A DNA stretch of 29,240 nt from Eledone cirrhosa (Eukaryota), in assembly GCA_964016885.1 (NCBI GenBank), contig CAXHJY010001761.1, positions 1 to 29,240 of the forward strand, in the 5' to 3' direction. Shown piece by piece: positions 1 through 27,679 of the stretch (the stretch's first letter is position 1; each line of letters begins with the position of its first letter). Under the pieces are notes generated by a model that worked only from the letters and a program-made list of their open reading frames with translations, had not been told where the DNA came from and searched no databases. A program made the translations under genes and the position numbers.

Positions 1-1250
1 ATCAAGCATAAAATCTCGAAAATAATACCCTATGATTTCTTCCGACTTATCGTGTGTTATAGTTCCCAAGTTTTCACTGTTCTCTTATATACACATATTC
101 AATTTGCATACACGTCATATTTCAAACCGAAACATAAAAGGAATACAACTGTCAACTTTGACACAAATAAATTGGAAAAGTGTAAAAAATAGAAAATAAA
201 AATAAAGAGAATTTTCTTTCTCATCAACAGTAGAAATTATATTTTTTATATTTGAAGTTGTAGGACAGATGTTTTCTGTTAAACAAGTGAGATGTTTTTA
301 GACAAACCTTCATTGACATTGTAACTTATTCCCGGTTGTTTATGAACAAGCACCATCTAAGCCTAAGTATAGAATTATGTGAATTTATGTCCTATTTTAT
401 AGTCGCAAATAATCGCATTTACATAACATAATACTTTCATTATTAAAATAAATAAATAAATAAATAAAGAAAGAAACCATTATTAAATTCTTTCGTTTTT
501 AACAATCATTCATTAACACATTTTACTTATAATCATTATTAAATACTTTCATGTATACACTATCTGATATAAAATCACTTGCCAAACAAGCACACAAAAT
601 CGCATGTAACAGTGTTAGCCACCATGCCATACGCCTTGCCAAAAGCAATGAAATAGCTTATTCTCTGGTGTTTGTTCCTTGTTAAACTAAATTTTAGCGG
701 TAAAACCCAGCTACGGTATCTGCCACATTTAATAAGTGATTTGGAGGTAAAACATTGTTTGGAGGACGTGGCATGATTCAATATATGGCAATGATTGATA
801 GTTGAAAAAGAATGCATTCAACAATGAAATTATTATGTTGCATACTTTCGATTTTCTTTTAAATCCCATTTATTTACGACGATAGAATAGAATTTAACTT
901 CAAGTTATTCTTCAGGTAGTCCAGCCTTCTTACTTGTAATTAGGTATGATGATTGGTACACTTCACATTTGTAAATAGAGAGCACTCCATAATCGACGAC
1001 TGTTCCTTTGACATGTAGTGCTTGGTTCAAAATCTTGTGTATGTCTATAATAAAATGCGTTCAACCTGCAGCTTTCCAGTCATATTTTTTCTGGTATAAT
1101 GCAGAGGTTCGACGAGCTTTAGATTCGAGAGTTCGGATAGATCGATACAGATCGAACTTTGAGCTGATCAATAGTGAAACGCGCGTCACTACTCAATAGA
1201 CGTAATGAAGACATAACAAATCGTCCTTTTTATTATATATATATATATAT

Positions 1251-1974
1251 AAACAATTAAGTTAAAAATGTACATCCACATATGTATACTGAAATACTAG
1301 TATGCATATGAATACACACACGTATACATATGTAGATGTACCAAGTCTTTCACTGGTTACTTTACTGTGAGTATCCAGCTATTCTGTATGTAAACACACA
1401 GACAAACCGGTTTTTAGAGTCATACTGGTTTTTGAGGAAACACCTTTCCTCTATTCTCCAGAAAGCCAGACAAGGAATATTGAACTAGTTTCGTTGTTGT
1501 TACAACTCATCAGCAATATTTACCTATCTACCGGCCTTTCTGGAGAATCGTAAAAGCACATATCGTTATATGCTTTTTCTATGAAAATTAGTAGTGGGCA
1601 GACTAATTTGCATAGAGTGTGAGTACGTACCGGTTCAACGGAGACGATAAAAACAAATAACGAAACGAAATTAAATTTCGTTTCGTTTGTAACTCACTTT
1701 TGTATGACTGACGCTTAAACAATTAAGTTAAAAATGTACATCCACATATGTATACATGTGTGTTTACATACAGAATAGCTGGATACTCACAGTAAAGTAA
1801 CCAGTGAAAGACTTGGTACATCTACATATGTATACGTGTGTGTATTCATATGCATACTAGTATTTCAGTATACATATGTGGATGTACATTTTTAACTCAA
1901 TTGTTTAAGCGTCAGTCATACAAAAGTGAGTTACAAACGAAACGAAATTTAATTTCGTTTCGTTATTTGTTTTT
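1251..1974 (-). mobile_element. Non-coding hammerhead-bearing element (retrozyme-like / non-autonomous PLE), ~466 bp unit plus inverted copy
   Basis: AAACAATTAAGTTAAAAATGTACATCCACATATGTATAC occurs at 1251 and 1717 (unit ~466 bp). 1757-1974 is the reverse complement of 1251-1400 and 1648-1755. It contains a hammerhead, has no ORF and is flanked by (TA)n on both sides. Confidence 0.75.
1476..1520 (-). ncRNA. Type I minimal hammerhead ribozyme
   Basis: Minus strand reads AAUAUUG CUGAUGA GUUG uaacaa CAAC GAAA CUAG UU^ CAAUAUU: 7-bp stem I, canonical core, 4-bp stem II, palindromic ACUAGU stem III. Confidence 0.9.
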
Positions 1975-2053
1975 ATATATATATATATATATATATATAA
2001 GTTAAAGGAAGAAGAGTAACATGGTTGGCTGTACAATAAGGGATTCATTTAAA

Positions 2054-2164
2054 GAACTGACAATTGTTTCGTTAATCAGGTGTGCCTAGAGTTCGCTAAT
2101 CACTTGAGGTTGCGTCAATCGATCTCCAATACATTGTTTACCACTTGTCAACACATCAGAGCGC
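2054..2164 (-). ncRNA. Degenerate hammerhead-like motif with long stem II
   Basis: GCU CUGAUGU GUUGA...~80 nt...UUAAC GAAA CAAUUG UC^ AGU. It has A9U in the core and a palindromic ACAAUUGU stem III. The inverted copy near 3245 lacks the GAAAC half. Confidence 0.55.
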
Positions 2165-2783
2165 ATAGATATGAAAATAATTCACTCGAAGCAAGACTTA
2201 TATAGAGGAGTAGCGTAAAACAAAACAATAACATCAATAATAGAGCAGCGTATAATTAAAACAATAACATCAATAATAAAACATGTATGGTAAATAGATA
2301 GAGAAGTTACAGATGTAAAAAGTGACAAGATACAATGTAGGGTACATTAAAAAAAAATAATAATAATAAGAAAATGAGGAAAAGGAAAATACAAAGAAAT
2401 AAAAGAAATGAAAGAGTGATATGTTGTACTTAGAGTTAGATTTTAGTAGTTCCTAATAAAGTGTTCCTTGGTGCTAACATGAGAGGCCAGATTTTAGAAG
2501 TAGATACATTTTTGTGGAGGGTCCGGTAAAATAGAAAACAATAAAATAGAGATTAATTGGTGTATACTATTTATGGGTTGACAGGTCATTTGATAAACGT
2601 TCGTTGTAGATGTTGGTCGCTCTATCTTAATGAGGTTCATGGAGGTAGGGTGGAATAAGTGTACAGAGATTTATGGTCCTGTGATCGGTTGGCAGTATGA
2701 TAGCTAATAGCGGTGTGAAAGTATGTATTCTATATGTTAAAGTCTAGGTGGTTCAGTACTAATTTTGGGATTGGTGATTCGAA

Positions 2784-3109
2784 TCATTGTGGTTTGAAGT
2801 TTGTAAATGTAGTAGCTATTTTATGCCTACAAAAAATGGATCTTTCTATTTTGCTGTTAAGCAGCATCTTATCGTACCTTAAAATATGTAGCAGTTCTAA
2901 ATTACAGAGCCCGCAGTGGGACATACCGTTGCTGTAGGATTTTGCTGCCGATAATTTTGACCAGCTAATCTTGTATTCTAGGTTTTTGTCCTTAAGCTGC
3001 CAGATTTTATTGGCGAGCATTGTAGAATTCTCCAGTGCACGGTTTTTCATGGAGTGTCTGTGGACGTACCACCTTTTAAACTCCCCAGCTGTGGAACCTA
3101 TGTAGTGCC
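2784..3109 (-). pseudogene. GIY-YIG endonuclease fragment of a PLE
   Basis: HYIGSTAGEFKRWYVHRHSMK...STMLANKIWQLK...ISWSKL...CGLCNLE...LLNSKIE...CRH shows the YIG motif, CxxCxxE and LLN...CxH of PLE endonucleases. Confidence 0.85.
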
Positions 3110-3547
3110 AACCGATCACAGGATCATAAATCTCTGTACACTTATTCCACCCTCTCTCCATCAACGTCATTGATGTTATTGTTTTGTTTTATGCTACTCC
3201 TCTATATAAGTCTTGCCTCGAGTGAATTATTTTCTTATCTATGCGCTCTGATGTGTTGACAAGTGGTAAACAATGTATTGGAGATCGATTGACGCAACCT
3301 CAAGCGATTAGCGAACTCTAGACACACTTTAAATGAAGTACTTTAAATAAAGCCCTTATTTTACAGCCATCCATGTTACTCTTCTTCCTTTAACTTTTAT
3401 TACTCCAAATATAACCTGCACAGAAATTTCCGCGAACTCGCTGCATAACTATGGAAACATCTTGTTGAGTCAAACAAAGCCGTACGTTAAAACCATCCAC
3501 AACGTAGAGTACTCTAACCGGATTACCTATAACGATAACTTGTTATT

Positions 3548-3620
<73 letters not shown>

Positions 3621-3623
<3 letters not shown>

Positions 3624-4523
3624 ATAATAATAAATTTGAAGACTAAAATCCAAAGAGGGTTCGATAAGGATATATATATATAACAAATATATAAGAACCT
3701 AACCTCTGTCATTTTCGTTCTACAAATTTATTTACATTATTCTTAACTCTAAAGCCGAGAATCATTCGGTTTCCTAAATAGAATATTTGTCTACGACTTC
3801 ATTTATAACATACACGTGGTTTTGTCTTTGCGTGTAATTGTTCTCATCGATTTACATAATGACGTATTATCTTCGCTTTTTTCCGTTCATTGCCAGGGAA
3901 CGTCTTCACGAACCAAAGTATAGTCTTCCTGTTTTCCTTCGGTTGCAACGTTTTTCGAAATATTTACTTCTGCATTCACAGATTTATTTTTTTTAGTTTC
4001 AGAAGATCCCGTTAAGGGTGAAAGCAGCGATTCTTTGCTTAAACTTTAATCTGTTATTTTAATATATATATATATATACTTTGTGTGTCCGTGCTTGTAT
4101 TTGTATACCTATGGCGAGTGTTTTCGTGTATGCTTGAGTATGTACGTATATGGATGCGTGTATGTATTTATTTAATTTCAATTACTTCTGTATTTTATTT
4201 ACTTTATTCTTAACTCTGAAGCCGAGAATCATTCGGTTTCCTAGTTAGAATTTTAGTCTACGACTTCAGTTATACCATTTACGTGGTTTTGTCTTTGCGT
4301 GTAATTGTTTTTCAATGCTCCAAATAATGACGTATTATCTTCGTTTTTTCCCGTTCTTTGCCAGGGAACGTTTCCACGAACCAAAGTATCATCTTCCTGT
4401 CTTCCTCCGGTTGCAACGTTATTTGAAATATTTACTTCTGCATTCACAGATTGACTTTTTTAGTTTCAGAAGATCCCGTTAAGGGTGAAAGCAGCGATTC
4501 TTTGCTTAAACTTTAATCTGTTA

Positions 4524-4530
<7 letters not shown>
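3621..4530 (+). mobile_element. Non-coding tandem element, ~467 bp period, with decayed hammerhead-like motif in each repeat
   Basis: ~3737-4063 is repeated at ~4204-4530. CAGAAGA UCCC guuaa GGGU GAAA sits at 4000 and 4467. The element is flanked by (TA)n, and a related fragment lies at 9523-9638. Confidence 0.65.
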
Positions 4531-4585
<55 letters not shown>

Positions 4586-4922: not shown

Positions 4923-5219
4923 GGATACTATTTATAGTTATGTATATTTTAAACTTTTTATAGTTATGTATATTTTAAACCATAAACAGGGAAGGTCAGT
5001 AATTTATTACTACCTTATTACCAGTAAGATATATAGCTCAATGTAATAACATCAGTTGTTCTACAGAACAGTTATATATAATTCACAAGAATCAAAGCTA
5101 TGTTCAAAGCATTTATTCACTTACAACTGTTTCATCCAAACCTAGGCTTGATGTCTTCGGAGCATTTTTCAATGTTTGTACATATAATTGACCTCCTATC
5201 CAACGCAAGAGACATGCAG

Positions 5220-5299
<80 letters not shown>

Positions 5300-6104
5300 A
5301 TGTACAGTGGAGTGACATATATTATACTATACTATATTTGTACAGCAATTCAAATTCAAAATCAAAATCAAAATTAAAATTAAAATTAAAATACATTCGG
5401 CAGATAACACAGATAATGCAAGAGGGTATTTTGATAGTCAGCTCTAGTAGGTAGTGTAAGCGTTAGTTACACATGGAGCATGCAAGTGTGTCTCATTTAT
5501 ATACGATTATTGTGTGGCAAGGTGTTACATGTAATACAAGCACTTTAAGCGGGTAAGCAAGAGTATTATGGTGGTTGGAGTGGTAGGGTATTTTTTGTAT
5601 AGATCAAAAAAGTATGTGTGCAGAAAAAGAAACAGAAAAAGAAAAAGAAAAAGAAAAAGAAAAAGAAAAAGAAAGTTATAGTTTTCGCATCCACCACCAT
5701 TTTCACATTCAGAAGAAGGAAGAAATAGTTTTTACATCCATCACATAAGTTACGATGATTCCGTATTGAATGTTTGATGCATTAAATTAAGTTATTGTAG
5801 CGTATTGAGGCTCAGTGTTATTTAATCCATATTTATAGAATAGGTTCTTTCTGCTGCGAGAATTTACAGTGGTTTATTACCCGGAAGTAGGTGTGTAACT
5901 AAGGGGAGTTAATGCGTAAGGGGAGGTAACTAGCTAATTCTCATAACTAAATTCATTGTTCTAACATACATTATATGGTGCCTCAATTGAGTCCCTTATA
6001 TAAAAGGTTATATATTTATATCTAATTTTCAATTTTAAATACATTCTACTCTATCATAATGTATTAAAGGTATCTATAGGAAGTTGATTACTCTTTCTTA
6101 TATA

Positions 6105-6290
6105 GGTGGATTGGCAGTATCAGTAGAGGGTCGGACGCCATGCTTTCCAGTTAAGTTACGTCCCTTTACGATCTGAGTTCAAATCCCGCCGAGGTTGACT
6201 TTGCCTTTCATCCTTACGGGGTCGATAAAATAAAGTACCAGTAATGCACTGGATAATTGCTGGCCTTGTGCCTAAAGTAGAGACAATTAT
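6105..6290 (+). mobile_element. tRNA-derived SINE (cephalopod-type family 1)
   Basis: A-box-like TGGCAGTATCAGTAG, B-box GAGTTCAAATCCC, central GCCTTTCATCCTTACGGGGTCGATAAAATAAAGTACC and an ATT tail; multiple copies in the window. Confidence 0.9.
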
Positions 6291-6753
6291 ATAGTGCTAT
6301 AATTGAATTTTCCATACAAAGTGCCATATCTTTATATCAAAGTTCACTGTAAATACAGTCTACTCTCAAAACATATCAGAGGACCTATTAGAATTTTGTC
6401 TACATAACTCCTGATAAGTTATGGAGCAGCGTATGGCTGTTTGCATGACAAAATCAAATACATCTCTTGGGTAGACAAATACATCCATTATTTACAATGT
6501 CATTAATCCATCCATCAAGTTATACTTGCATATATAATTCATATATAATTCATTGCACCACCCTACATATGAGTTAGACAGATCCCTTATGTTAATAAAT
6601 TAATCCTATATACATTTAATTCCAATTGCATATATAATTCACTGCCGTATCTAGTATTTAAAGTTTATATAGACTGTATTATATTTCTATCACTATATAA
6701 TTATAAGTAATTGAAAGTAATTATATTAAAAGTTGGTGTTTATGAGGATATTT

Positions 6754-7400
6754 CTAGGGTATAAAGTTATAGATAGATAGAATGATTTGTGTCGATGGAA
6801 GGGTGTCGAGAGAGTGTGGTGTAGTGGTGTAAGGCATGCCCTTGAGGTGTGGTGTTAGAAGCGGTGATGGGTTCAAGTCTGACATTGTTATATATTGGGT
6901 TTAAAGTTTTGGAAGGAGTGCCGGAAGCGGTGTTGGCACGACGCAAACACTTCCCATTTTTTATTAAGGAGGTTAAGGTTCGAGAAGATTATAGTATGGG
7001 TCTCTAGTAGACAGAGGTTACAGAATTTATTAGGTGGTCTGTACGATGCCGCCTTACCTATCACTTCCCATTGAAGTGTATATGATCTATTTCTAGTTTT
7101 CAGATAGTGTATGTAGCTAGATAGTGAAGTGGAATTGGCTAGACTGTATTTTTTGAAAGAAAGGAGATGTGAATTGTATCTGGTTTTGAAGCAGTTCGAA
7201 GTAGAGCATATATAGGTTTCAGAAGAGTTGCTAGTTCTGACCGTGCATGAGTAGATGATGTCCTTGATTAAGCAGTTTTTATCTAAAGGGCAGGTTCTAT
7301 TAGATCTACAGTTACAATTATTTTGGATGGTACCCTGTCGGTTATTATGTTGTGTAGAGGTCTGGTTGCTAGGTATTGCATTATGGCTATGGGGGTTGTT
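6754..7400 (-). pseudogene. Complete PLE GIY-YIG endonuclease domain, 5'-truncated (no Met, so absent from the ORF track)
   Basis: Manual translation gives CNCRSNRTCPLDKNCLIKDIIYSCTV...ETYICSTSNCFKTRYNSHLLSFK...STSLSSYIHYLK...LQWEVIGKAASY...CNLCLLE...LLNKKWEVFASCQH, open to TAG at 6754. Confidence 0.9.
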
Positions 7401-7813
7401 GCTTACCCGCTTAAAGTGCTTGCATTACATGTAACACCTTGCCACACAATAATCGTATATAATTGAGACATACTTGCATGCCCCATGTGTAACTAACGCA
7501 TACACTACCTATTAGATCTAACTATCAAAATACCCTCTTGCATTATCTGTGTTATCTGCCGAATGTATTTTAATTTTAATTTTGATTTTGAATTTGAATT
7601 GCTGTACAAATATAGTATAGTATAATATATGTCACTCCACTGTACATCAATATATATATATATATATGTATCTGTATGTTTCTTGCGTTGGATAGGAGGT
7701 CAATTATATGTACAAAAATGCTCCGAAGACACCAAGCCTAGGTTTGGATGGAACAATTGTAAGTGAATAAATGCTTTGAACATAGCTTTGATTCTTGTGA
7801 ATTCTATATATAT

Positions 7814-7876
<63 letters not shown>

Positions 7877-8026
7877 ATAAGATAATAATACTTGAGTGCA
7901 TTAGAGTTAAATACACTCGTCGTATTAGAGAAATGACAGTATAAGATATAGCTCAATGTTATCAAACAGAGCCGAAAAATTATATAAAATTAACAAAGAA
8001 GCCTTTAATACATTAAAAATCTTTAT

Positions 8027-8071
8027 TTGCTGACAATGTTTCGTCCCATTAATTAGGACTCATCAGAGCAA
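8027..8071 (-). ncRNA. Type I hammerhead ribozyme (canonical core)
   Basis: UUGCU CUGAUGA GUCCUA auuaa UGGGAC GAAA C auu G UC^ AGCAA, followed by AAUAAA. Confidence 0.93.
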
Positions 8072-9378
8072 GGAAAAAGACAAGAAATATCATCGGCTAG
8101 AACAATCCAAAATTCAGAAGAATAGCGAATGGATATTTAGGAACATTTAGGAAAATTATCATGGAAAGACATGTTAAACCTAATAGGGTGCATTTGTAAA
8201 TAAAAACTATAGGGCAAGAGAGCAAGCAAACATTAAACAAACCCACGTTAAAAGTACAATATAAGTCTAATACTTGAAATACAACATAGTAATATAATGC
8301 GAGAAATAAGATATAAAAATTATAATATAAAATACAATACAATACAATACATAATACAGAAATAAAACTTAATATATATATATATATATCTACACGCACT
8401 CCGACACATATATACACACACACATATACACATTTTCACATACACATATTAACACAAATATATAAATATAAGCATTATAATAGAATAATCACCCTGACGG
8501 TGTGATTAAACAATACTAAAATCAATGAAAATAATATACTGACATTAAAATATATAAATACATACAACGTACCATGCAAAGTCAACAAAACATGTATAAA
8601 AACATAATGTATTCCACAGGGTAAAAAATAATACCATAAAATAAAATAAAGTATAGTGAAAAAAAAAATATATATATATATAATAGACAATAAATATACG
8701 GAGATATAGGCAATTCAAATACATATAATATTACATATTAATATTTGAATACCAGACACATAATAGCAAGGGAGAAAGTTTTAAAACATATTTACACAAT
8801 ATATTCATCGACACAAGTGACAGAATAAGTGACCCTGTGGCATACATTATGTTTTTATACACGTTTTGTTGACTTTGCATGGTACGTTGTATGTATTTAT
8901 ATATTTTAATGTCAATATATTATTTTCATTGATTTTAGTATTGTTTAATCACACCGTCAGGGTGATTATTCTATTATAATGCTTATATTTATATATTTGT
9001 TTTAATATGTGTATGTGTAAATGTGTATATGTGTGTGTATATATATGTGTCGGAGTGCGTGTAGATATATATATATATTAAGTTTTATTTCTGTATTATG
9101 TATTGTATTGTATTGTATTTTATATTATAATTTTTATATCTTATTTCTCGCATTATATTACTATGTTGTATTTCAAGTATTAGACTTATATTGTACTTTT
9201 AACGTGGGTTTGTTTAATGTTTGCTTGCTCTCTTGCCCTATAGTTTTTATTTACAAATGCACCCTATTAGGTTTAACATGTCTTTCCATGATAATTTTCC
9301 TAAATGTTCCTAAATATCCATTCGCTATTCTTCTGAATTTTGGCTTGTTCTAGCCGATGATATTTCTTGTCTTTTTCC

Positions 9379-9423
9379 TTGCTCTGATGAGTCCTAATTA
9401 ATGGGACGAAACATTGTCAGCAA
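9379..9423 (+). ncRNA. Type I hammerhead ribozyme (canonical core)
   Basis: Identical to 8027-8071; predicted cleavage after C9418 (GUC). Confidence 0.93.
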
Positions 9424-9463
9424 ATAAAGATTTTTAATGTATTAAAGGCTTATTTGTTAATTT

Positions 9464-9525
<62 letters not shown>

Positions 9526-9636: not shown

Positions 9637-9669
<33 letters not shown>

Positions 9670-9929
9670 GGCAAGAATGAAACGAAATTTCATTTCTCAC
9701 TCTTAGTACGGCTGTTACTTAAATATAAGTATGTATACGTACATACATATATGTATACAGACGTACAGTAGTATGTATATATATACATACATGCACACAT
9801 ATATTTTCCTAGTATGGATTTACCGAGCATTTATTATAATGCTCGGTTTGTTTGTAAACAAACATCCCGAATTAAACCGTACAGTGTTTAGCAACCATCG
9901 TTGCCCCTTTGTTCAACACTGACAAAGGA

Positions 9930-9972
9930 ACGATGTACTAGTTTCAAGCTTATTAGCTATCGTCAGCACCCT
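9930..9972 (-). ncRNA. Type I minimal hammerhead ribozyme
   Basis: GGUG CUGACGA U AGC uaauaa GCU U GAAA CUAG UA^ CAUC. Confidence 0.8.
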
Positions 9973-10550
9973 ATACCTTCCTGCTAGATGATTGAACGTC
10001 TGAAAGTATATACTTTCCTTATGCATATTAACGGCTGAACAGCCTAATTTACATATCGAGTGAGTTAATCGGCCGGGCGCACCGAAAAGGATAAATGGAA
10101 AAAATGAAACGAGCATTATAATAAATGCTCGGTAAATCGCTTGAAACTAGTAATCGTTCCTTTGTCAGTGTTGAACAAAAGGGAAACGATGGTTGCTAAA
10201 CACTGTACGGCTTAATTCGGGATGTTTGTTTACAAACAAACCGAGCATTATAATAAATGCTCGGTAAATCCATACGTACATATATATATATATGTGTGCA
10301 TGTATGTATATATATATATACATACTACTGTACGTCTGTATACATATATGTATGCACGTATACATACTTATATTTAAGTAACAGCCGTACTAAGAGTGAG
10401 AAATGAAATTTCGTTTCATTTTTTACATTTATCGTTTTCGGTGCGCCCGGCCGATTAACTCACTCGATATGCAAATTAGGCTGCTCAGCCGTTAATATGC
10501 ATAAGGAAACTATATACTTTCAGACGTTCTATCATCTGGCAGGAAGGTAT

Positions 10551-10593
10551 ACGGTGCTGACGATAGCTAATAAGCTTGAAACTAGTACATCGT
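10551..10593 (+). ncRNA. Type I minimal hammerhead ribozyme
   Basis: ACGGUG CUGACGA U AGC uaauaa GCU U GAAA CUAG UA^ CAUCGU: 6-bp stem I, palindromic ACUAGU, U.U at the base of stem II. Confidence 0.85.
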
Positions 10594-10796
10594 TCCTTTG
10601 TCAGTATTGAACAAAAGGGCAACGATGGTTGCTAAACACTGTACGGCTTAATTTGGGATGTTTGTTTACAAACAAACCGAGCATTATAATAAATGCTCGG
10701 TAAATCCATACGTACATATATATATATGTGTACATGTATGTATATATATACATACTACTGTACGTCTGTATACATATATGTATGTACGTATACATA

Positions 10797-10867
<71 letters not shown>

Positions 10868-11386: not shown

Positions 11387-11426
<40 letters not shown>

Positions 11427-11479
11427 GTGGAGAAGTAAATAAAGGAGGACAAACCGTTAAATCATGTTTATTTAAAATA

Positions 11480-11520
11480 GCACCTACATACGTTTCGCCC
11501 GAATGGGCTTCTCAAGGGCA
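11480..11520 (-). ncRNA. pLTR hammerhead ribozyme, U3-A8 core variant
   Basis: GCCC UUGAGAA GCCC auuc GGGC GAAA CGUAUG UA^ GGUGC, then AAUAAA; stem I short. Confidence 0.72.
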
Positions 11521-11888
11521 TAAACAACTAAAAAGCGTTCCTTACATGACCCGGAATGGGTTTTTAGAGATAAGTTCACGTCAGAGTTCATTCTTAGTAA
11601 AAAAAACATGTATTGATTTTGGAGTGGGTCAAGGGAGATATCTCTAGCCGGTGTTAGGGTAGTCTTTTCCGGACGATTTTTTTTATCCGTTACTACTATG
11701 TGGTTACTCCCTTACCATTATCGATACGCACAGGGTCAGGTATGCAACGTTAGTTTCGAGACGTTTGTTTGCTGTGCCTGCCCACCTGGGTCGATTCTTT
11801 CCGGGTCTGGGATGCATGGTTAGTTTCCGGATGTTTTTTGCAGCGCCTGCCCGCTGAGGTGTTAAAGCTTGGTGCAGGGAGACTCGGT

Positions 11889-12330
11889 TTACGGTTTCCA
11901 CTCCTCGTTCTTATTCCATCTGGAGTAGGGTATTTTTAAGCGGTGTGTACAGCTTATCGTTGTGTCAGCTCTGCTGTTGATGAGATCGTGGGGTGCAGTA
12001 ATGATATGGTAGAGCTCCATGAGCCAAAGCTCGCACTTCCTCTTGAAGTTGTACGGAGCAGCTCTGCCGACAATTTCCCAGTGCGTGGAGAAGCTCATGT
12101 TTGAGTCTTTTAATGCTGTGATGTAGTTCGCGAGCGAAGTGGAGTGTCTTAGCTTCTTGTTGCAAAAGAGTGGAGGTGTGTTCGAAATCTATTTTTGAAC
12201 GGCCCAGAGGTAGTCCCTATATAATGTTTAACGCTATTATGGCTAGTTACGGTGCACCTATATATAACCATATCAGTCAGGCAGTTACCCCTAAGGGGAC
12301 AGCATCCCTGTCGCGGCAGTTACAATTTCG
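11889..12330 (-). pseudogene. PLE GIY-YIG endonuclease, two frameshifts
   Basis: NCNCRD/CPLRGNCLTDMVIYRCTV...KHYIGTTSGPFKNRFRTHLHSF/RHSTSLANYITALKD...HWEIVGRAAPY...CELWLME...LINSR...SCTH. Confidence 0.92.
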
Positions 12331-12501
12331 GTCGCGGTCCCTTCTAGTTCCCACGGTAAGGCTATTATTATTATTGCTTTCTACGTTGTTACCTACGCTC
12401 TTACACCTGTCATTAGCACCATTATAACCCACTGTGTGCGGGGTGTTACCATTATTATTCCGCACGCAGCAGCGTCTTCCGTTGCCGTCAGGAGACCCTC
12501 T

Positions 12502-14556
12502 GACAAAACCAAGAAGCTGTACAAGATGGACGCGAGCAAGTATAAACAATTCATTTATAAAGAACTACACAAAGACTACAAAAAGACACCCATTAGTACA
12601 TTAAATGACATAAATAGAGTAGGGAAGGATATAGTTACTAGCTTAGAAATAGATAATTACACAAAGCCATATGTCCCTCTGACGCCTAAATTCTCTCTTA
12701 AGGATCACAAATGTAACTTTAACGAAAGCCCCTCTGTTAGACTAATATGTCCCTTTACATCTGATATAGGTAAGATTAGTAAAGTGATCCTCGATAGAGT
12801 ACTACTGGAGCTTAATAGAAAGGCTCAGATCTGGAGTAACACCGACTAGGTCATAGATTGGTTCACCGAGTTGCCTGATAAAGCGACCCTGAAGTTAATC
12901 CAGTCTGACATAGATAGTTACTACGCCTCTATCTCCCCCATACTCTTAAATCAGGCACTCATCTTAGCTAAATCTAACACTAGCCTCACTAAAAAGAAAT
13001 AGACATAGTTCTAGCGGCGCGTAGAACCATTATCCAGTTCGAAGGCTCCCACTGGACCAGAACCAACCGTCCTGATAACTTAGATATCACGATGGGGTCC
13101 ACTGACTCGGCGCAAGCAACCGACCTGGTCAGAATATACCTCCTCCATAAGCTTAGGGACGAGATACCGGTCCTACAAGGAGGTGTATATAGAGACGACG
13201 CCTTGTTTACCGTTAGGAACAATAGCCCCCGTAGAATAGAGAACATTAACAAGCAGATACACAGGTTCTTCAATTCATACTGCCTATCCGTAAATATAGA
13301 CCTCAACCATCAGGTTGTCAACTTCCTGGACGTGACCCTGGAGTTAAGTACGGGCCTATAAAAGCCATACCATAAGCCTGGAGAGTGCCTTTCTTATATT
13401 AATTATGCCTCCAACCACCCTAAGCAGACTCTCAACTCCATAGTCTATAGAATCTCACATATGATCTCGAGGCTATCCGCCAATCAGGATATCTTCAACA
13501 TAACGGCAGATTACTACAATAAGGCCTTGATAAGCGCCGGTTTTAACCGAGGAATCTCCTACATCCCTAATGCTAGCTCCAGAAACCACCCCTCTCATAA
13601 GACTAACGTTATAGAAAGCCATACCTATAACCGATCACGCGGCGGATTTGAAAGAGTCGGATGTAATAGTATAGAAAATCGCACTAAGGAACACGGCCAC
13701 AATGTTAATTACACTAGCGATAGTATAGGTAGCGTACCACACAATAAAGATCACGACATCGGTGACAGTGACCACTGTAGCCTACTTGAATTATTCCCCT
13801 ACTATAAGTTCAACAAAGGCGACGGCCTACTACCAACGCCTTCCAACCAACATCTTCCTATACATAAACGTAGCAGAAGGAAAAAGAGTGCACCCGAGCA
13901 TATAGCGAAAGGGACACGTAACGGGCTACAGCGCAATAACATGCATAAGAACGGTCACCCTTATAGCACAACCCGTAGCAAACGTACAAAGACTAGTAAT
14001 CGCCACCGTAATGTCGTCCTATGGTTCCATCCCCCCTACTCTCGGAGTGTGGCCTCCGACATACCCCTGATATTCTTCGAAGCCTTAGAGAAGAACTTCC
14101 CACCCAATCATAAGTATAGGAAAATCATTAATAGGAACAATATAACAATATCCTTCTATACTACTCCTAACCTAGCAGACATCATAGGAACAACTAATCA
14201 CAGTAAGATCACCAAGACACAGCACCTTAGCACCGACGCTCCTACACCTGACAACAACTATATCGGCCTTAACGACTCCCTAGCAGCATCCAATAGTGCT
14301 GGCAACAGCCACTACAGACGCAACCGACATAACCGCGACATGACTGGGGAATATGCAGGTGACCCGCACGGCTCACCTGACGGCAACAGAAGACGCTGCT
14401 GCGTGCGGAATAATAATGGTACCACCCCGCACACAATGGGTTATAATGGTGCTAATGACAGGTGTAGGAGCGTAGGTAACAACGTAGATAGCAATAATAA
14501 TAGCCTTACCGTGGGAACTAGAAGGGACCGCGACCGAAATTGTAACTGCCGCGACA
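12502..14556 (+). pseudogene. PLE reverse transcriptase (5'-truncated, 2 stops, 1 frameshift) with thumb and linker
   Basis: DKTKKLY, LKDHK...VRLI, DIDSYYASI, DITMGS.DSA, YRDD (13188-13199), VNFLDVTL, SNHP, WFHPPYS...FPPNH...INRNN, CNCR. Stops at 12847 and 13359, frameshift near 12995. Confidence 0.93.
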
Positions 14557-15087
14557 GTTACAATTACGAATGGTTTAATTCCGGATCTTTTTTGCAGCGC
14601 CTGTCCGCTGAGGTGTTAAAGCTTGGTGCAGGGAGACTCGGTTTACGGTTTCCACTCCTCGTTCTTATTCCATCTGGAGTAGGATATTTTTAAGCGGTGT
14701 GTACAACTTATCGTCGTTTCAGCTCTGCTGTTGATGAGATCGTGGGGTGCAGTAATGATATGGTAGAGCTTCATGAGGCAAAGCTCGCACTTCCTCTTGA
14801 AGTTGTACGGAGCAGCTCTGCCGACAATTTCCCAGTGCGTGGAGAAGCTCATGTTTGAGTCTTTTACTGATGTGATGTAGTTCGCGAGCGAAGTGGAGTG
14901 TCTTAGTTTCTTGTTTAGTAACGGATAAAAAATCGCCTCGAAAAGACTGCCCTAACCCCGGCTAGAGTTATCTCCCTTGACCTACTGCAAAATCAATACA
15001 TGTTTTTTTACGAAGAATGAACTCTGACGTGAACTTATCTCTAAAAACCTATTCCGGGTCATGTAAGGAACGCCTTTTAGTTGTTTA

Positions 15088-15128
15088 TGTCCTTGAGAAG
15101 CCCATTCGGGCGAAACATACGTAGGTGC
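15088..15128 (+). ncRNA. pLTR hammerhead ribozyme, U3-A8 core variant
   Basis: GUCC UUGAGAA GCCC auuc GGGC GAAA CAUACG UA^ GGUGC, then AAUAAA. Confidence 0.72.
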
Positions 15129-15332
15129 TATTTTAAATAAACATGATTTAACGGTTTGTCCTCCTTTATTTACTTCTCCACGTGCTTCCGCTCTGCTAAT
15201 TCTCTCGCCCACTAGATATTAACACTTCTAATATTTAATACTTCCGGCACTAATATTGAGCATCCTCTGCATACGCTATTGGCAAATAATTACATGTATC
15301 GCCTATCCCTCCTTCTCTCTCTCGATACGTAA

Positions 15333-16184
<852 letters not shown>

Positions 16185-16958: not shown

Positions 16959-16994
16959 AGGGGAGATAGGGAGCGAAAGAAAGGGAAATAATTA

Positions 16995-17182
16995 ATAATT
17001 GTTTCTACTTTTGGCACAAGGCCAGCAATCAACCAGTACATTACTGGTACTTTATTTTATCGACTCCGTAAGGATGAAAGGCAAAGTTAACCTCGGCGGG
17101 ATTGGAACTCAGAATGGCAAGGGCCGTAACTCTATGCGTCAAAGCATGGCGTCCGACCCTCTACCGATACTGCCAATCCACC
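16995..17182 (-). mobile_element. tRNA-derived SINE family 1
   Basis: Reverse complement of the 6105-6290 family. Confidence 0.9.
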
Positions 17183-17339: not shown

Positions 17340-17517
17340 TGGCAGTATCGGTAGAGGGTTTGACGCCATGCTTTCCAGCATAGTTACGTCCCTTTATGAT
17401 CTGAGTTCAAATCCCGCCGAGGTTGACTTTGCCTTTCATCCTTACGGGGTCGATAAAATAAAGTACCAGTAATGCACTGGGTAATTGCTGGCCTTGTGCC
17501 TAAAGTAGAAACAATTA
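17340..17517 (+). mobile_element. tRNA-derived SINE family 1
   Basis: Matches 6105-6290. Confidence 0.9.
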
Positions 17518-17869: not shown

Positions 17870-19432
17870 AAACACTAATTAGATAGCCAAAAAGATGCAG
17901 AAACTACCGAAATGAACAAAATTGCGAACTCTTAACTTCACCTCTTAGGAACTGCTTACAGCAATTAAATCTATAAAAGCCAACAAATTCCCAGGAAGCG
18001 ACCAATCTGTAACTGCAGAAACCTTGCGATATGGGATGGAGGGAGGTAACTCCATTCAGTACTTCTTGAGACTGCAAACCTTGTTCTTAATCAAAAGGAA
18101 GCACCAAAGCAACGGAGAGAAAATATTATCATACCTATTACAAAGAAGCAATCAAATAACACGAAAGACTTCCGAGGAATATTACTGATGTCAATTGCTG
18201 GAAAAGTATTTAACAGAATGCCCCTGAATCGCATCTACTAACCAGTAAATAAAATTCTTCAACCTTACCAAGCGGGATTTTGCAAGGGGCGAAATTGTCT
18301 AGAACAAATACACGTGTTGAGAAGGGTAATAGAAGTTTACCATTAATGTTAGATGTCATCTTTGTAGATTTAAACAAGACATTCAATTCTATCAACAGAA
18401 ATATATGTGGGAAATTCTACGGTACAATGAATTCCCTTCCAAAATTGTTGATGTTATTGCTTCAATCTACTGAAACAGTACCTGCCGTGACCGTCTTGGT
18501 AATCATATGAATCAACCTTTCCCCATCAACACTGGTGTCTTACAAGGGGACACACTTGCACCATTCCTTTTTTATCATCGTACTTGATTATGTCCTGAAA
18601 CAAACTCCAATAATGGATTGAAAACGCATCCAGAAAAACCTGGAGTTTTTCTACCCGTTTTAGACTGCAGACGGCATTATTTTACATGACTCGTCAGAAG
18701 CTTTTGCAGCAGATAATCTCAGCAACACACAAGAAACTATCTTCCCTGATGGCCTTAGAATTACCCAGAGAAAACGAAGGCCATGCACATAAATTATACC
18801 CGTACCGGACCCCGGCTATCAGGCCTGGAAAATATAGAAATTGTAACTTCAACTACTTAGAAGCCCGCCTTATCTCATCCCTAGACAACTTTCGTCAAAG
18901 GCGTGTCATTGCCTGTAAACATTTCTGGAAGTTACAAACGGTTTTGAGGTCGAACAAAATCTTTCTTCAACTCAAGTTACGACTGTTTGATTCTTTAATC
19001 ATCTAGATAGTTCTCTATCGGGCAGAATCATTAATTCTCAACTTCTCCATGAAAAAGAAAAATCAGTTAAGCTCATTTGCCACCAGCTGCTACCGTATTA
19101 TGTTGGGTGTCAAGCGAAGAAATAGAGCCAGAAATGAACCGATCCTGGCAACCAGCTGCGTATCCTTGGTCACTGGCTGAGAAGCCCACAAGAAACAACA
19201 GCCCACCGCTATGCTAAAACCCAAGGCCCAAACCGTAGAGGTCGACCACGCTTAACATATGTCCCCCCCCCCCCCCCCCAAAAAAAAAAAACATACAAGA
19301 CTCCACTGGCCTTAGCGTAGATACGATATATCAATGTGCGGTGGACAGGAATGAATGGCGATGACGTGTAGTCAGGAGGCTATACACGCGAACTCCCAAC
19401 TAATAGAATAGAATAGAATAGAATAGAATAGA
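17870..19432 (+). mobile_element. Decayed 5'-truncated non-LTR retrotransposon (RTE-like) RT with (AATAG)n tail
   Basis: Across frames: KFPGSD, IIIPITKK...DFRGILLMSIAGKVFNRM, YQAGFCKGRNCLEQIHVLRRVIE, IFVDLNKTFNSINR, TGVLQGDTLAPFL, IVLDYVL, LKLRLFDSLI, RRGRP. Tail at 19402-19432. Clade assignment is tentative. Confidence 0.85.
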
Positions 19433-20070
19433 AAAAATATTTTCTGATGTGGATAAATTCGTTTCTGTGGATGTATTTTATAAATAAACACTTATTATAT
19501 ATGAGCGGTTTACAGTCTCTACTATTCACGAGTTAATTGGAAAATTTTAATAGAACTGCCGCTCCTGTTGATAAGTAAAGATCAAATTAATAGAATTTTA
19601 TGATTTGTAATAACTCAGACAAGTATCAATGTCAGACAAGTATCAATAGACTGTGCTTTGTGATTTTTCTCTTTTTTTTGTATTTTCTGAAGAACATCAA
19701 TTTCCATGCAATTTGTCTTTCAATATATTTAATTTCTTTCCATTCTTTTTGCAATTTGCAATTACAAATTCGTAAAACAGAAACGTATGTCTAAACCAAA
19801 AATAAATGGTGTTAGAGCAGGCTGTAAGTAGACAAACAAATTTGAAATTCAAAATGGAATGGATAAAATATTTTCAAATTCTTTTTATTGAATTTCGATT
19901 AAACTTCTAATTTCAGACTGTCGTCTTTCTCTTACCTTTGATTTTTTGGTTTTTGAAAAAAAACATCTGTTTTATCAATTTGAAATTTCAATCAACACAA
20001 ATAAATAAGTAATCAAACAAAAACGGAACAAAGTACTAGAAAGGATATTAAATCGAAATTTCGCCGAGCA

Positions 20071-20252
20071 TAATAATTGTTTCTACTTTTGGCACAAGGC
20101 CAGCAATTACCCAGTGCATTACTGGTACTTTATTTTATCGACCCCGTAAGGATGAAAGGCAAAGTTAACCTCGGCGGGATTTGAACTCAGAATGGAAAGG
20201 GCCGTAACTCTATGCGCCAAAGCATGGCGTCCGAGCCTCTACCGATACTGCC
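20071..20252 (-). mobile_element. tRNA-derived SINE family 1
   Basis: Reverse complement of the 6105-6290 family. Confidence 0.9.
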
Positions 20253-21550: not shown

Positions 21551-22218
21551 TTTCGTAACTTAGAAGTCAGTCAAAAAGATATCGATGAAATAAGTACCAA
21601 ACTTGAAAATCAATAAGTACACGGTTCCATATAATTGACTAAATGCCTTGAAAACGTTGTCCAAGCATAAACACCCCAAACAACTGAAATCAGCAAAGAA
21701 ATACAAACAAAAACGCCGATTCCTTCGGAAGATCCCTGAGACACGCCTGTCCAGGTCAAACAACAACAATAACCACCACCACCACCACAATAAAAAAATA
21801 ACAACAGCAATAATAGTTATACTGATACTACTACTACTAATAATAACAACAACAACCACTTTATTGGCCACACTTACTGATTAATCTTGCTTTTAACATC
21901 TCATTGGCTAATTTTCGACGAAATACAATGGAGTGTGTGTATATATATATATATATATATTGACCGATTAATCGCTTAAGTTTATTTTAAAAACAACTCG
22001 GTAGAGAGCTTATTCGTTTTGTGCTGTTTTTGCAAATTTTTGCAATAACTACACATGTTGAATTCACTGGCCAAAATAGGGGTTTTCTCCCCTTAGAATC
22101 TCACATGTGCTTTCACAACCTGCGAGATTCCGGCGCAAGAAGACAAAAACCTATTGAGAAAGCGATGCCTTGTTCGATCATTATACCAAAAGCTTATTTT
22201 TATAAGCAGACAGTATTA

Positions 22219-22403
22219 TTGGCAGTATCGGTAGAGTATCGGATGCCATGCTTTGACGCATAGAGTTACAGCCCTTGTTATGCTGAGTTCAAATCCCGCC
22301 GAGGTTAATTTTGCCTTTTTTTCCCTTACGGGGTCGATAAAATAAAGTACCAGTAATGCACTGGGTAATTGCTGGCCTTGTGCCAAAAGTAGAAACAATT
22401 ATT
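22219..22403 (+). mobile_element. tRNA-derived SINE family 1
   Basis: Matches 6105-6290. Confidence 0.9.
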
Positions 22404-22701: not shown

Positions 22702-22823
22702 ATAAATGGAAAAAAATGAAATTTCATTTCTCACTCTTAGTACGGCTGATACTTAAATATAAGTATGTATACGTACATACATATATATATACAGACGTAC
22801 AGTAGTATGTATATACATACATG

Positions 22824-22867
<44 letters not shown>

Positions 22868-23648
22868 CGTATGGGTTTACCGAACATTTATTATAATGTT
22901 CGGTTTGTTTGTAAACAAACTGCCCGAATTAAGCCGTACAGTGTTCGGCAACCATCGTTGCCCTTTTGTTCAACACTGACACAGGAACGATGAACTAGTT
23001 TCTAGCTTATTAGCTTTCATCAGCATCGTATACCTTCTTGTCAGTCGATTGAACGTTTGAAAGTATATACTTTCGTTATGCATATTAACGTGTTGAACAA
23101 AAGGGCAACGATGGTTGCTAAACACTGTACGGATGCATACTACTGTACGTCTGTATACATATATGTATCTACGTATACATACTTATATTTAAGTATCAGC
23201 CGTACTAAGAGTGAGAAATGAAATTTCATTTTTTCCATTTATCGTTTTCGGTACATCCGGCCGACTAACTCACTCGATATTCAAATTAGGCTGCTCAGCC
23301 GTTAATATGCATGAGGAAAGTATATACTTTCAGACGTTCAATCATCTGACAGGAAAGTATATACTTTCAAACGTTCAATCGACTGACAAGAAGGTACACG
23401 GTGCTGATCACAGCTAATAAGCTAGAAACTAGTTCATCGTTCCTTTGTCAGTGTTGAAAAAAAGGGCAACGATAATTGCCGAACACTGTACGGCTTAATT
23501 CGGGCTGGTGTTTACAAACAAACCGAGCATTATAATAAATGTTCGGTAAACCCATACGTACATATATTTATGTGTGTATGTATGTATGTATATACATACT
23601 ACTGTATGTCTGTATACATATATATATATATGTACGTATACATACTTA

Positions 23649-23652
<4 letters not shown>
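22702..23652. mobile_element. Second insertion of the ~435 bp retrozyme-like family (inverted copy then tandem copies)
   Basis: Homologous to 9662-10800. The inversion junction is near 23090. Hammerheads lie at 22987-23029(-) and 23398-23440(+, core mutated to CUGAUCA). (TA)n flanks both sides. Confidence 0.85.
22987..23029 (-). ncRNA. Type I minimal hammerhead ribozyme
   Basis: ACGAUG CUGAUGA A AGC uaauaa GCU A GAAA CUAG UU^ CAUCGU. Confidence 0.8.
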
Positions 23653-23725
<73 letters not shown>

Positions 23726-23987: not shown

Positions 23988-24144
23988 ATAGGTTTGGTAG
24001 AAATATCCAAGGGTAAGAGCACTCAGTCAATAGGATGAGTAAATATAATTAGTTACAACAATGACATATACAGGTATTTAAGTTCATTGGGTTATAACCC
24101 CACCAAACTTATGTACCTGTATATGTCATTGTTGTAACTAATTA

Positions 24145-24539
<395 letters not shown>

Positions 24540-24560
24540 ATAATAATAACAATAATAAAC

Positions 24561-27263
24561 AGTTCGAATAACGGTGAAGTGGAGACTGGAATGTCATGTG
24601 ACAGACTCTCACCCAGCAGGTGCTCCCTGGCTCAGCAGCAGGGACTTGGCTGTCAACCAAATACTGCTGGTGTCGCAGGAAGAAGAAGGAAAGGGACCAG
24701 AACCAATTGGACGAAAGAATTGAATAGAACTGTTATGCAATGTTACCTGAAGAGTAATCCAAAGGAAAAAGGCTATAGGAAACGGATGCATAACATCTGG
24801 AACGAGATTGGTCCATTTAAATTAGATGAACAAAAATTGGCCGGGCAGGCTCGGGTAATAAGAACTAATGGGTGGATAAGCGAGCTGGAACTGGAGGAAC
24901 TGAGCAGAGAGATTAGGTTGGAAATGGAGAGTGGAGTATGCCAGGCAAATGAGCCAGTGGGAAATGAAGGTGAAGAGGTTGAGAGAACGGAGGAACCATC
25001 CGAAGCAGACAATGATCTGAATGCTGAAATAAATAATACCTGGTACAAAAATACGGCCATTGAGGAGATGAATGCTGACGGGCTAGGACAAGATTTGGTT
25101 GATATCCTAAACTTAGTGGTAGATGAAATGAACAATGATAGTGGGAAACATAATAACCTAAGGTTTGTAGACAGGAAAAAGTTAAAAGAAACAACAGCTA
25201 AGGTAAACAAAGTCATCCCATACCTTGAGGCGAGGAGCCTTCACCAGTGCAACAATATCCTCAAAGCAACAGCAAATGCGGTGAGGAAATTACTTGGCAT
25301 GAAAGCGAGAGGAAACAACAAATAAGAAAGATCAGAACCTTGGTGGAAGAAACGACTGAATGATCAAATCAGGGAAATGAGAAATGACATTGGAAAGCTT
25401 GTGTCCCGACTGAATGGGACACTAAAAAACATAGACACTAACAATAGACTGGAAATAAAGTACAAAACTAGGAGGAAAAGGCTAAATATTATCATAGAGG
25501 AACTGAAGCAACGCATTGTAGCCAAGAGTGCAAACATTAGGCGATACGAGAGCATAATCAGTCAGTATAGACAGAACCGCATGTTTGACAACAACCAGAA
25601 GATATTGTTTGGACAGCTTGAAGGGAAAGAAAGAGGCAACGACTTGATCCCTGAGGCGGAACAAACTAAGACATTCTGGAGAGGAATATGGGAGCAGGAT
25701 GTTAGACATAATGACCAGGCAGTGTGGATTGAGACAGTACAGAAGGAGATTGGTGAACAGGCACACCAACAAACTGATTTGAGTATCACAGTTGAAACTC
25801 TTAAGGGGCAAGCCAAAAAACTAACCAACTGGAAATCACCAGGCCCAGATGGTGTGCAGGGGTATTGGATTAAAAATGTAACATCCCTCCACCCGAAACT
25901 GACAACCATGTTCAATGACTGCTTGATGTCAGGTGAGGTACCAGAGTGGTTGAAAAAAGGTACCACAGTTCTGGTAATGAAAGACCGAATCAAGGGTAAT
26001 GATGTTACCAACTATAGACCTATCACATGCCTGTCCGTAATGTGGAAACTGTTGACAAGCATTGTGTCTGAGGAAATCTACCATCACCTCCACACAAACA
26101 ACTTGTTACCGGACGAACAGAAAGGATGCTGAAAGAAGTCCTGTGGTACAAAGGACCAGTTACTTATTGATAAGATGGTAATGAGGAATTGCAAAAGGAG
26201 ACACACTGGTCTTGCCATGGGATGGATAGACTACAAAAAGGAATTTGACATGGTGCCTCATTCTTGGATCACCAAAAGCCTGGAGATCTTCAAGGTGGCA
26301 GATAACATCAGACAGTTGTTGGGAAAAAGTATGAAGTCCTTGGAAACAGAGTTAACATCAGTTGGAGAATCCTTGGGAGGCGTGAAGATCAAGAGAGGTA
26401 TCTTCCAGGGAGATACTTTGTCCCCTCTGTTGTTTCTCCTTGCCCTGATGCCCCTGACCATTATACTGCGAAAAAGGATTTGGAACTGCCATGAAATCAA
26501 GGTCGTCCTGATTGTCATAGGCGCACTAGGTACTATCTCAAAGAGTTTCCAAGGATGGTTAAAGAAGGATGGACCATTATACTGCGAAAAGTGAGAGCAG
26601 GATACAAGTTGGGAAAGGGAGAGCTTACCATCAATCACCTCCTCTTCATGGACGACCTTAAGCTCTTCGGGAAGAGTGAGAAGGAGTTGGATGTGCTTGT
26701 TGACACTGTCCGTATTTTCAGCAATGGTATTAGTAAGTGTGGAGTCCTTGTGATGAAGAGGGGTAAATTGAGCAGGAGCAACGGAATCCATGTACCAACA
26801 GGTGAGATGATAAGGAAATTGACACTGAAGAAGGATACAAGTATTTGGGTATTCTGGAGGCTGATGACATCAAGAACAAAAAAATGAAGGAATTGATAAG
26901 ATCTGAATACATTCGGAGAGTAAGGAGCGTATTAAAGTCATGTCTGAACAGTAGGAATGCCATAAGTGCAGTAAATTCCAGAGCTGTGTCTATTATTAGG
27001 TACAGTGCGGGAATTCTGAGATAGAATGTTGCTGAAAAAAAGAAATGGATAGGAAGACTAGGTAGCTATTGACTATCTACAACATGTTCCACAAGAGGAG
27101 TGATGTCGATAGACTCTACTTAAGGAGATCTGAAGGTGGAAGAGGTCTTATCAGCATAGATGACTGTGTTCAGATGGAGAAAAACAACGTACACAAATAC
27201 GTGACCGATAGTAAGGAGCCAATGCTCAAAATTGTACTTAAGGAGAAGACTGTGGTAAAATGA
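24561..27263 (+). mobile_element. Decayed R4/Dong-like non-LTR retrotransposon, 3'-truncated
   Basis: WTKELN..VMQCY...GYRKRMHNIW...[87 protein letters not shown]. It has stops and frameshifts and no APE domain, and its 5' flank is (TAA)n. Confidence 0.88.
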
Positions 27264-27498
27264 AGTCGTGGTCGCCAGTGTGGTAAAATGAAGTATCCTA
27301 TTTGGATTGCTTATCGACATAGACGTGAGGGTATGTCCCTCGCCTATTTACCATCTTTGTATTTACAATATTCCTCACGTCAGGTCATCAATTCTAGCAG
27401 CATGGATTATATATGTCATTGAGACACGAGCAACATAATAATGATTTCAACAGCAGAAATTAGAGATGAAATGTATGTTTATTTTTGTTGTAGCACAA

Positions 27499-27679
27499 AT
27501 AATTGTTTCTACTTTAGGCACAAGGCCAGCAAATTACCCAGTGCATTACTGGTACTTTATTTAATCGACCCCGTAAGGATGAAAGGCAAAGTCAACCTCG
27601 GCGGGATTTGAACTCAGATCGTAAAGGGACGTAACTATGCTGGAAAGCATGGCGTCCGACCCTCTACCGATACTGCCAA
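27499..27679 (-). mobile_element. tRNA-derived SINE family 1
   Basis: Reverse complement of the 6105-6290 family. Confidence 0.9.

Follow-up and report, generated by a model that had tools for sequence, protein, structure and literature searches.

The window, meaning the whole 29,240-nucleotide stretch of Eledone cirrhosa DNA analysed here, is AT-rich (25-47 % GC per kb) and carries many (TA)n tracts, SINE-like repeats, LINE pieces, and inverted-arm insertions. Two of the insertions, at 9664-10806 (insertion 1) and 22702-23654 (insertion 2), are head-to-head pairs of arms built from one repeat family, which has a unit length of 436 nt and 36 % GC. Positions in the unit are numbered from the first base after the predicted ribozyme cut.

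A repeated 436-nt non-coding unit

One whole unit, from cut site to cut site, lies at 10153-10587 on the plus strand. It is rich in hairpins and, being one base short at the cut, is 435 nt long in this copy. The first-pass annotation had reported a tandem unit of about 435 nt that has no ORF and is packed with internal hairpins, and each part of this description is borne out. Predicted cut sites at 10152 and 10587 set the length, and the three hairpins quoted are located in the unit, at 10241-10264, 10224-10241, and 10402-10420. The lack of an ORF agrees with an ORF scan of 9660-10810, in which the 12 ATG-initiated ORFs of at least 30 aa were all short or readings of the TA repeat, and with tblastn, in which 270 distinct proteins of Penelope-like element (PLE) type (150 and 120 relatives, among those listed by profile searches, with uninformative names) gave no match in insertion 1 or insertion 2. 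A single-sequence protein search scored none of 10 candidates, and the reverse transcriptase (RT) plus C-terminal GIY-YIG ORF that an autonomous Hydra-clade PLE has between its terminal repeats (pLTRs) is absent from both insertions.

When folded as a circle, 64 % of the unit is paired (z -7.5 against 40 shuffles). Its reverse complement folds equally strongly (z -7.7), therefore the fold excess does not pick out a strand. Non-LTR retrozymes are recognized by a non-coding unit of about 150-450 nt, with GC below 50 % and strong self-pairing; this unit has all of these features, though the self-pairing is not strand-specific.

Insertion 1 starts with an inverted (left) arm (9664-10112, minus strand), in which positions 260-436 are followed by 1-281 (1.05 units) and the site B 3′ end runs into (TA)n. 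At the inversion junction there is a templated filler of 32 nt (10107-10138, plus strand; positions 88-119), 6 nt of which are common with the left arm. The direct (right) arm (10139-10806, plus strand) contains positions 423-436, 2-436, and 1 to about 225, amounting to 1.55 units with two cut-site junctions, and its site A 3′ end also runs into (TA)n. As the first-pass annotation had stated, the second insertion, at 22702-23654, has different internal junctions: an inverted arm (22702-23090, minus strand; positions 339-436 and 1-281; 0.87 unit), a templated filler of 43 nt (23090-23132, plus strand; positions 17-59), and a direct arm (23133-23654, plus strand; positions 167-392, 356-436, and 1-225; 1.14 units). 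The direct arm includes a 37-nt duplication (23317-23390, plus strand), the two copies of which are different family variants with four differences. The copies were said to be of more than unit length; this is so for three of the four arms, the exception being the arm of 0.87 unit. Divergence from arm to arm is 3-6 %, and the overlapping copies within insertion 1 differ by private changes only (2.8-4.5 %). For this family, whole insertions are readable at these two loci (n=2).

Public contigs from four of the five listed runs were aligned to one unit, with X1 and X2 being from one sample and X4 from a second organism. There were 11,320 contigs from X1, 12,421 from X2, 120 from X5, and 12 from X4, and based on these numbers the family is abundant. 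Summed contig depth is 10^5 to 10^6, a quantity that does not equal copy number, and the contig comparison covers the unit outside 10213-10329. The exact 34-letter ribozyme pattern had no matches in a metagenome collection. A highly repeated 436-nt non-coding element with a predicted hammerhead is real.

Hammerhead ribozymes of the four arms

Each of the four arms has exactly one complete ribozyme. In insertion 1, a complete type I hammerhead is present in the left arm (9930-9972, minus strand; CUGACGA...GAAA, predicted to cut after 9936 at GUA, with one stem I mismatch) and another in the right arm (10551-10593, plus strand; predicted to cut after 10587), the latter with a helix I of 6 bp, a helix II of 4 bp on a U-U mismatch, and a helix III of 2 bp. 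In insertion 2, the inverted arm has a hammerhead with a CUGAUGA core and a GUU cut (22987-23029, minus strand), and the hammerhead of the direct arm (23398-23440, plus strand) has G8 changed to C, the only one of the four to do so. The shared layout is CUGANGA, GAAA, a helix III inside the palindrome ACUAGU, and a cut triplet of GUA or GUU. At 10139-10158 (plus strand) there is a half hammerhead, with GAAA, stem III, and the cut-site half, lacking CUGANGA and the first base after the cut. A unit running hammerhead to hammerhead from 10141, as previously described, is therefore not found, since only the 3′ half of a ribozyme lies there, with no CUGANGA. One base is absent exactly at the predicted cut of this half ribozyme, at 10152-10153 (n=1), a change that is not among the listed contig indels; it is possibly a ligation or template-jump scar.

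None of the four arms in insertions 1 and 2 has two complete ribozymes, though head-to-tail joints are present. Neither locus can therefore release a unit-length RNA by two cuts, which rules out at both loci the release by consecutive ribozymes that the first-pass annotation had proposed. G8 to C abolishes cleavage in the ribozyme of the Anolis PLE (PMC11167929). The copies at these two loci are probably dead.

Across the four copies and a sister family described below, 74 of 75 pair cells are standard, and in 6 of the 15 pairs both sides have changed, in every case via the sister family. The structure was drawn from the same sequences as were scored, therefore the slide control is biased. Contig variants listed within the ribozyme are confined to five positions that tolerate change (helix I twice, N7, loop II, and H17), and among the 40 variants listed, with 10 more existing, the catalytic core is untouched. 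Helix I formed in two of the four copies when 140 nt were folded locally; a predicted long stem extending helix I would keep the ends of a cut monomer together. At E≤1, none of the four ribozymes of the 436-nt family is listed by Rfam; the sister family hammerhead is listed, below the gathering score. Rfam microRNA matches over the TA-rich hairpins were all below the gathering score as well and were dismissed as composition matches. Judged from its core, helices, and covariation, the ribozyme is of the type I hammerhead class expected of a non-LTR retrozyme. Its form is that of the canonical metazoan hammerhead, which is described as cutting poorly alone and better as a dimer (PMC4209133).

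Fixed 3′ ends in (TA)n and a proposed route of insertion

The inner (5′) ends of the arms vary, being at unit positions 260, 423, 339, and 167. The outer (3′) ends do not. End B, at position 281, is on the left side of both insertions (9664 and 22702), and end A is on the right side of both (approximately 10800-10806 and approximately 23654). Within the whole unit, end A, a putative start of reverse transcription, corresponds to 10367-10376 (plus strand; positions approximately 216-225, with TA-like microhomology), and the tail between the two fixed ends to 10377-10432 (plus strand; approximately 56-60 nt), which holds the AATGAAATTTCGTTTCATT hairpin and terminates in end B at 10432. The earlier proposal of permuted copies is not confirmed: variation is confined to the inner ends, the outer ends being the same in both insertions (281 and approximately 220-225). 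The apparent permutation arises from counting the unit from the ribozyme, whereas the likely starting points of copying are two fixed positions elsewhere.

Contig data point to the same places. Loose ends running into (TA)n are found at 10432 (position 281) in 42 contigs of X1 and 43 of X2, and at 10373 (position 222) in 39 contigs of X2 and one of X5. Among the best 23 of 409 rows of loose ends, the largest coincide with the two outer ends seen in the window and none is at the cut site, which is bridged by at least 31 nt on each side in 7 of the 32 listed contig pieces. The outer ends are fixed in both insertions and at homologous places in the sister family. All four outer ends of insertions 1 and 2 abut (TA)n and, together with the piled loose ends, identify the (TA)n target expected of a Hydra-clade PLE derivative.

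This anatomy is that of PLE insertions, in which a 5′-truncated partial tandem is described as being accompanied by a neighbouring copy in inverse orientation and by a one-sided tail (Arkhipova et al. 2013, PMC3846280; Craig et al. 2021, PMC8557442). An inverted 5′-truncated copy beside a partial tandem is seen in both insertions and in the sister insertion, and two fixed 3′ ends (approximately 222 and 281) enclose a tail. A PLE enzyme has been shown to cut both strands of AT-rich DNA and extend them, with reverse transcription beginning inside the RNA at two neighbouring sites 3′ of the hammerhead; the tail is the stretch between these sites, and uncut RNA is the main substrate in vitro (Frangieh et al. 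2024, PMC11167929). The insertions here likewise have an AT-rich target and two fixed ends 3′ of the hammerhead; they differ in having no ORF between the repeats and a tail of about 60 nt, against 30-40 nt in the published cases. In the Hydra clade, (TA)n targets, DKT and CxCX5C motifs, and canonical hammerheads are reported (PMC8557442). The target and the hammerhead are shared with the 436-nt unit, which unlike those elements encodes nothing. PLE coding remnants in the window (2766-3272, 6891-7490, and 11877-14969) carry DKT and CxCX5C; since the Hydra clade also inserts into (TA)n, this clade is indicated as the probable helper. Pfam found nothing significant in six PLE pieces of the window.

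The preferred reading, at a probability of roughly 0.75, is that the 436-nt unit is a high-copy non-coding repeat of pLTR type that is retrotransposed in trans by a Hydra-clade RT-endonuclease, from a multi-unit template and with template switching. A Hydra-type enzyme would nick both strands of a (TA)n tract, and each nick would prime reverse transcription inside the RNA, one at site A (approximately 222 nt after the cut) and the other at site B (281). Two priming sites would give two head-to-head arms, one of them with the tail of about 60 nt. The RT would read through the ribozyme junction, stop or jump at variable points, and sometimes jump onto another RNA of the family, giving short fillers and a mosaic arm. 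We infer the helper, the priming, and the switching from an anatomy, fixed ends, target, mosaicism, and conserved ribozyme fold that are themselves observed. Weighing against this reading are a coding partner that was not recovered, the single complete ribozyme per arm at these two loci, the formation of helix I in only half of the local folds, and the tail, longer than those published.

Based on these features, the unit is likely to be a retrozyme of the non-LTR type that derives from a PLE, is non-autonomous, and is mobilized by a Hydra-clade enzyme. With non-LTR retrozymes (Cervera and de la Pena 2020, PMC7229834; Li, Clavereau and Pollet 2026) it shares a head-to-tail non-coding unit of a few hundred nt with GC below 50 %, a canonical type I hammerhead with a weak palindromic helix III, strong self-pairing, co-occurrence with PLEs, and a proposed derivation from pLTRs. 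The U-U at the base of helix II is also found in HHR_Amex2 of the axolotl. The circles reported for non-LTR retrozymes are of 170-400 nt, slightly shorter than this unit, and their arrays contain two complete ribozymes, whereas here there are dispersed inverted-pair arms of 0.9-1.6 units. An active copy has been defined as a head-to-tail tandem with two consecutive complete ribozymes (Li et al. 2026). In the 436-nt family, a target site duplication (TSD) is unreadable in the (TA)n flanks. Non-autonomous elements of Chlamys such as MRC1 (PMC8557442) are likewise PLE derivatives with pLTRs and head-to-tail copies; however, they are from green algae, belong to a clade with an N-terminal endonuclease, and mostly have no hammerheads. 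A plant LTR retrozyme, having direct LTRs, type III hammerheads, a PBS, a PPT, and a 4-bp TSD, was considered and rejected on the type I topology and the absence of an LTR pair.

Non-LTR retrozymes, their proposed PLE origin, and the anatomy of PLE insertions are already in print, and the element is a new family rather than a new kind of element. Co-occurrence and pLTR similarity have led to the proposal that PLE enzymes mobilize animal retrozymes, and a derivation of these retrozymes from pLTRs has been put forward in a preprint that calls the mechanism open (Li et al. 2026, bioRxiv 10.64898/2026.07.22.740005). What is added is a non-coding ribozyme unit bearing the marks of PLE insertion, namely an inverted arm, a tail, a (TA)n target, and two internal starts. 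The family is so abundant that circle and linear multimer could be tested against each other across the genome using DNA sequence only. In the open literature listed, no report of the 436-nt family and no mapping of retrozyme copies to two internal RT starts was found, and a search for octopus or cephalopod retrozymes found no paper.

Template, pLTR origin, and neighbouring elements

The cut site is crossed by all four arms, and twice by the direct arm of insertion 1. A cut linear monomer copied once therefore cannot be the template, which is likely to be an uncut multimer or a closed or nicked circle. In insertion 2, the second copy of the 37-nt duplication is identical to the left arm, and the first differs from it at four places, where it has the letters of insertion 1. 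At positions 46-47 the 43-nt filler likewise carries the letters of insertion 1, which neither arm of insertion 2 has. A short stretch of internal similarity marks the site of the duplication, as expected after a template switch. With two variants in one arm, insertion 2 requires at least two template variants rather than one circle, though later gene conversion or a heterogeneous source array could have produced the mosaic arm.

The first-pass annotation had proposed that consecutive ribozymes release a unit-length RNA that becomes a circle, and that RT rolling around this one circle produces permuted copies of more than unit length. The retrozyme-like, reverse-transcribed, and non-coding character of the element is supported; rolling around a circle, as evidenced by permuted ends, is not, given fixed 3′ ends and two templates. 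The same annotation had named fixed ends shared by all copies, these being simply the pLTR of a coding PLE, as what would speak against its circle: the 3′ ends are indeed fixed, and the pLTR-only explanation is retained below at low weight. For a single circle, one arm spans two junctions, the private changes in insertion 1 are as expected of a single template followed by decay, the ends of a cut monomer would stay together through the long extension of helix I, and the one missing base is exactly at the cut (n=1). Retrozymes of coral, mussel, and axolotl make circular RNAs (PMC7229834). Besides the two templates needed for insertion 2 and the fixed 3′ ends, a single circle is opposed by the absence of any arm with two complete ribozymes or more than 1.55 units, and by arm lengths (378-673 nt) resembling those that the window's other PLE insertions show for their inverted arms (244-642 nt). 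Ribozyme cleavage is not required by the Anolis PLE enzyme (PMC11167929), and cutting in vitro was reported for only one of nine Xenopus retrozyme dimers (Li et al. 2026). Copying from one circle is therefore unlikely.

An uncut linear multimer, used with switching, falls just short of an even chance as the template; closed or nicked circles, also with switching, are a reasonable possibility at slightly below that, and other routes are improbable. A more specific proposal, speculative and on the doubtful side, is that closed or nicked RNA circles made by the ribozyme propagate the family, and that a dimeric PLE enzyme of Hydra type would hold two of them, prime at the two fixed sites on the strands of (TA)n, and hop between circles. 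If this were true, the thousands of inverted-arm insertions would document, in readable form, the retrotransposition of retrozyme circles, and circularization would be what regenerates full repeats in a 5′-truncating system.

The head-to-tail joint at 10432-10433 (plus strand) is where the ORF of a coding partner would be expected. The ORF-less joint is identical in three arms and is also present in the sister family; it is bridged by at least 31 nt on each side in 3 of the 32 listed contig pieces. The sister family is represented by an insertion at 1250-1976 (minus strand), with a unit of approximately 466 nt that is 70 % identical to the 436-nt unit (145 of 207 and 170 of 242 aligned letters) and collinear with it, a hammerhead at 1476-1520 (minus strand), and no ORF of 100 aa. 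Its circular fold has a z of -11.8. The two ends, the joint, and the inverted-arm layout are the same, with the tail on the other side. Because the layout has been kept at 30 % divergence, the ORF-less unit is likely to be an independent and long-lived element.

It was suggested in the first-pass annotation that a junction of the unit with a PLE ORF be sought. In two contigs each from X2 and X5, an alternative upstream sequence of approximately 140 nt enters at position 280, and its last codons resemble the C-terminus of a Hydra endonuclease, followed by a stop; three arms have no ORF at the joint. The X5 reading scores 10 bits against the ends of 100 related proteins, equalled by 4 of 20,000 random 30-mers from the window, this being a 30-letter consensus from two contigs per run, with an agreement of about 0.7, chosen from 23 rows. 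In the X2 consensus, a stop interrupts the reading after two codons. None of the 270 PLE-type proteins ends in the candidate C-terminal motif, and no sequence is common to the 436-nt unit and the window's coding remnants, both of which count against the preferred reading. As a hint from sequence, a coding relative of the unit probably exists, which agrees with the derivation of retrozymes from pLTRs (Li et al. 2026), and the unit is likely to be an isolated pLTR of a Hydra-clade PLE.

It could instead be that there is no independent element, the copies being pLTRs that belong to a coding PLE, are truncated at the 5′ side, and lie in partial tandem at each insertion. Fixed ends, standard PLE anatomy, and the ORF-like sequence joining position 280 would all be explained, but independent truncations would not repeat a joint that is base-identical in three arms and present in a family diverged by 30 %, nor is contig depth broken across it. 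In addition, a helix I of 6 bp and a helix II of 4 bp are canonical and of retrozyme type, not the minimal PLE form (PMC4209133). This explanation is judged quite unlikely. A DNA-level fold-back or MITE-like repeat, a recombined satellite, or an assembly artefact would suit the long inverted arms, many perfect hairpins, flanking microsatellites, and a folding excess equal on both strands, but is largely refuted, and highly improbable, given unequal arms with variable inner and fixed outer ends, ribozyme covariation on one strand only, an arm divergence of 3-6 % that is unlike a mis-join, and the same ends in independent contigs.

An octamer-like ATGCAAAT is at the same place in the 436-nt and sister families (10469-10476, plus strand, and 1606-1613, minus strand), approximately 80-90 nt before the ribozyme core, and is altered in two other arms. 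An octamer is presumably involved in the snRNA-type promoter of newt satellite 2. For that satellite, a promoter of snRNA type has been described (PMC2220036).

Four further inverted-arm insertions of PLE type with one-sided tails are present, at 1995-3551, 5041-7818, 7875-9469, and 11425-15310. Three contain decayed pieces of Hydra-type RT or endonuclease, one has a canonical hammerhead (9378-9424 and 8026-8072), and two have hammerhead-like cores with letters changed. The linker of the PLE at 11425-15183 includes a long low-complexity stretch rich in Asn, His, and Arg (13600-14560), which the N-rich inserts of rotifer Penelope elements (PMC3846280) resemble. A non-coding tandem at 3727-4545, with a period of 468 nt, approximately 1.75 units, and 91 % likeness, ends in (TA)n and has a hammerhead-like stretch with the core CAGAAGA...GAAA; it is possibly a variant-ribozyme family. 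A direct repeat of 210 nt (15409-15618 and 15905-16112), 96 % alike and spaced by 494 nt, adjoins (TA)n and contains hammerhead-like fragments.

A SINE-like repeat of approximately 180 nt, which we take to resemble octopus repeats, has six copies (6110-6290, 16990-17177, 17340-17517, 20070-20252, 22215-22403, and 27498-27680) and shorter pieces near 24130-24560. Decayed regions of LINE-type reverse transcriptase are at 17900-19300 and 24450-27100, the second of these two LINE pieces having a Pfam RVT_1 match.
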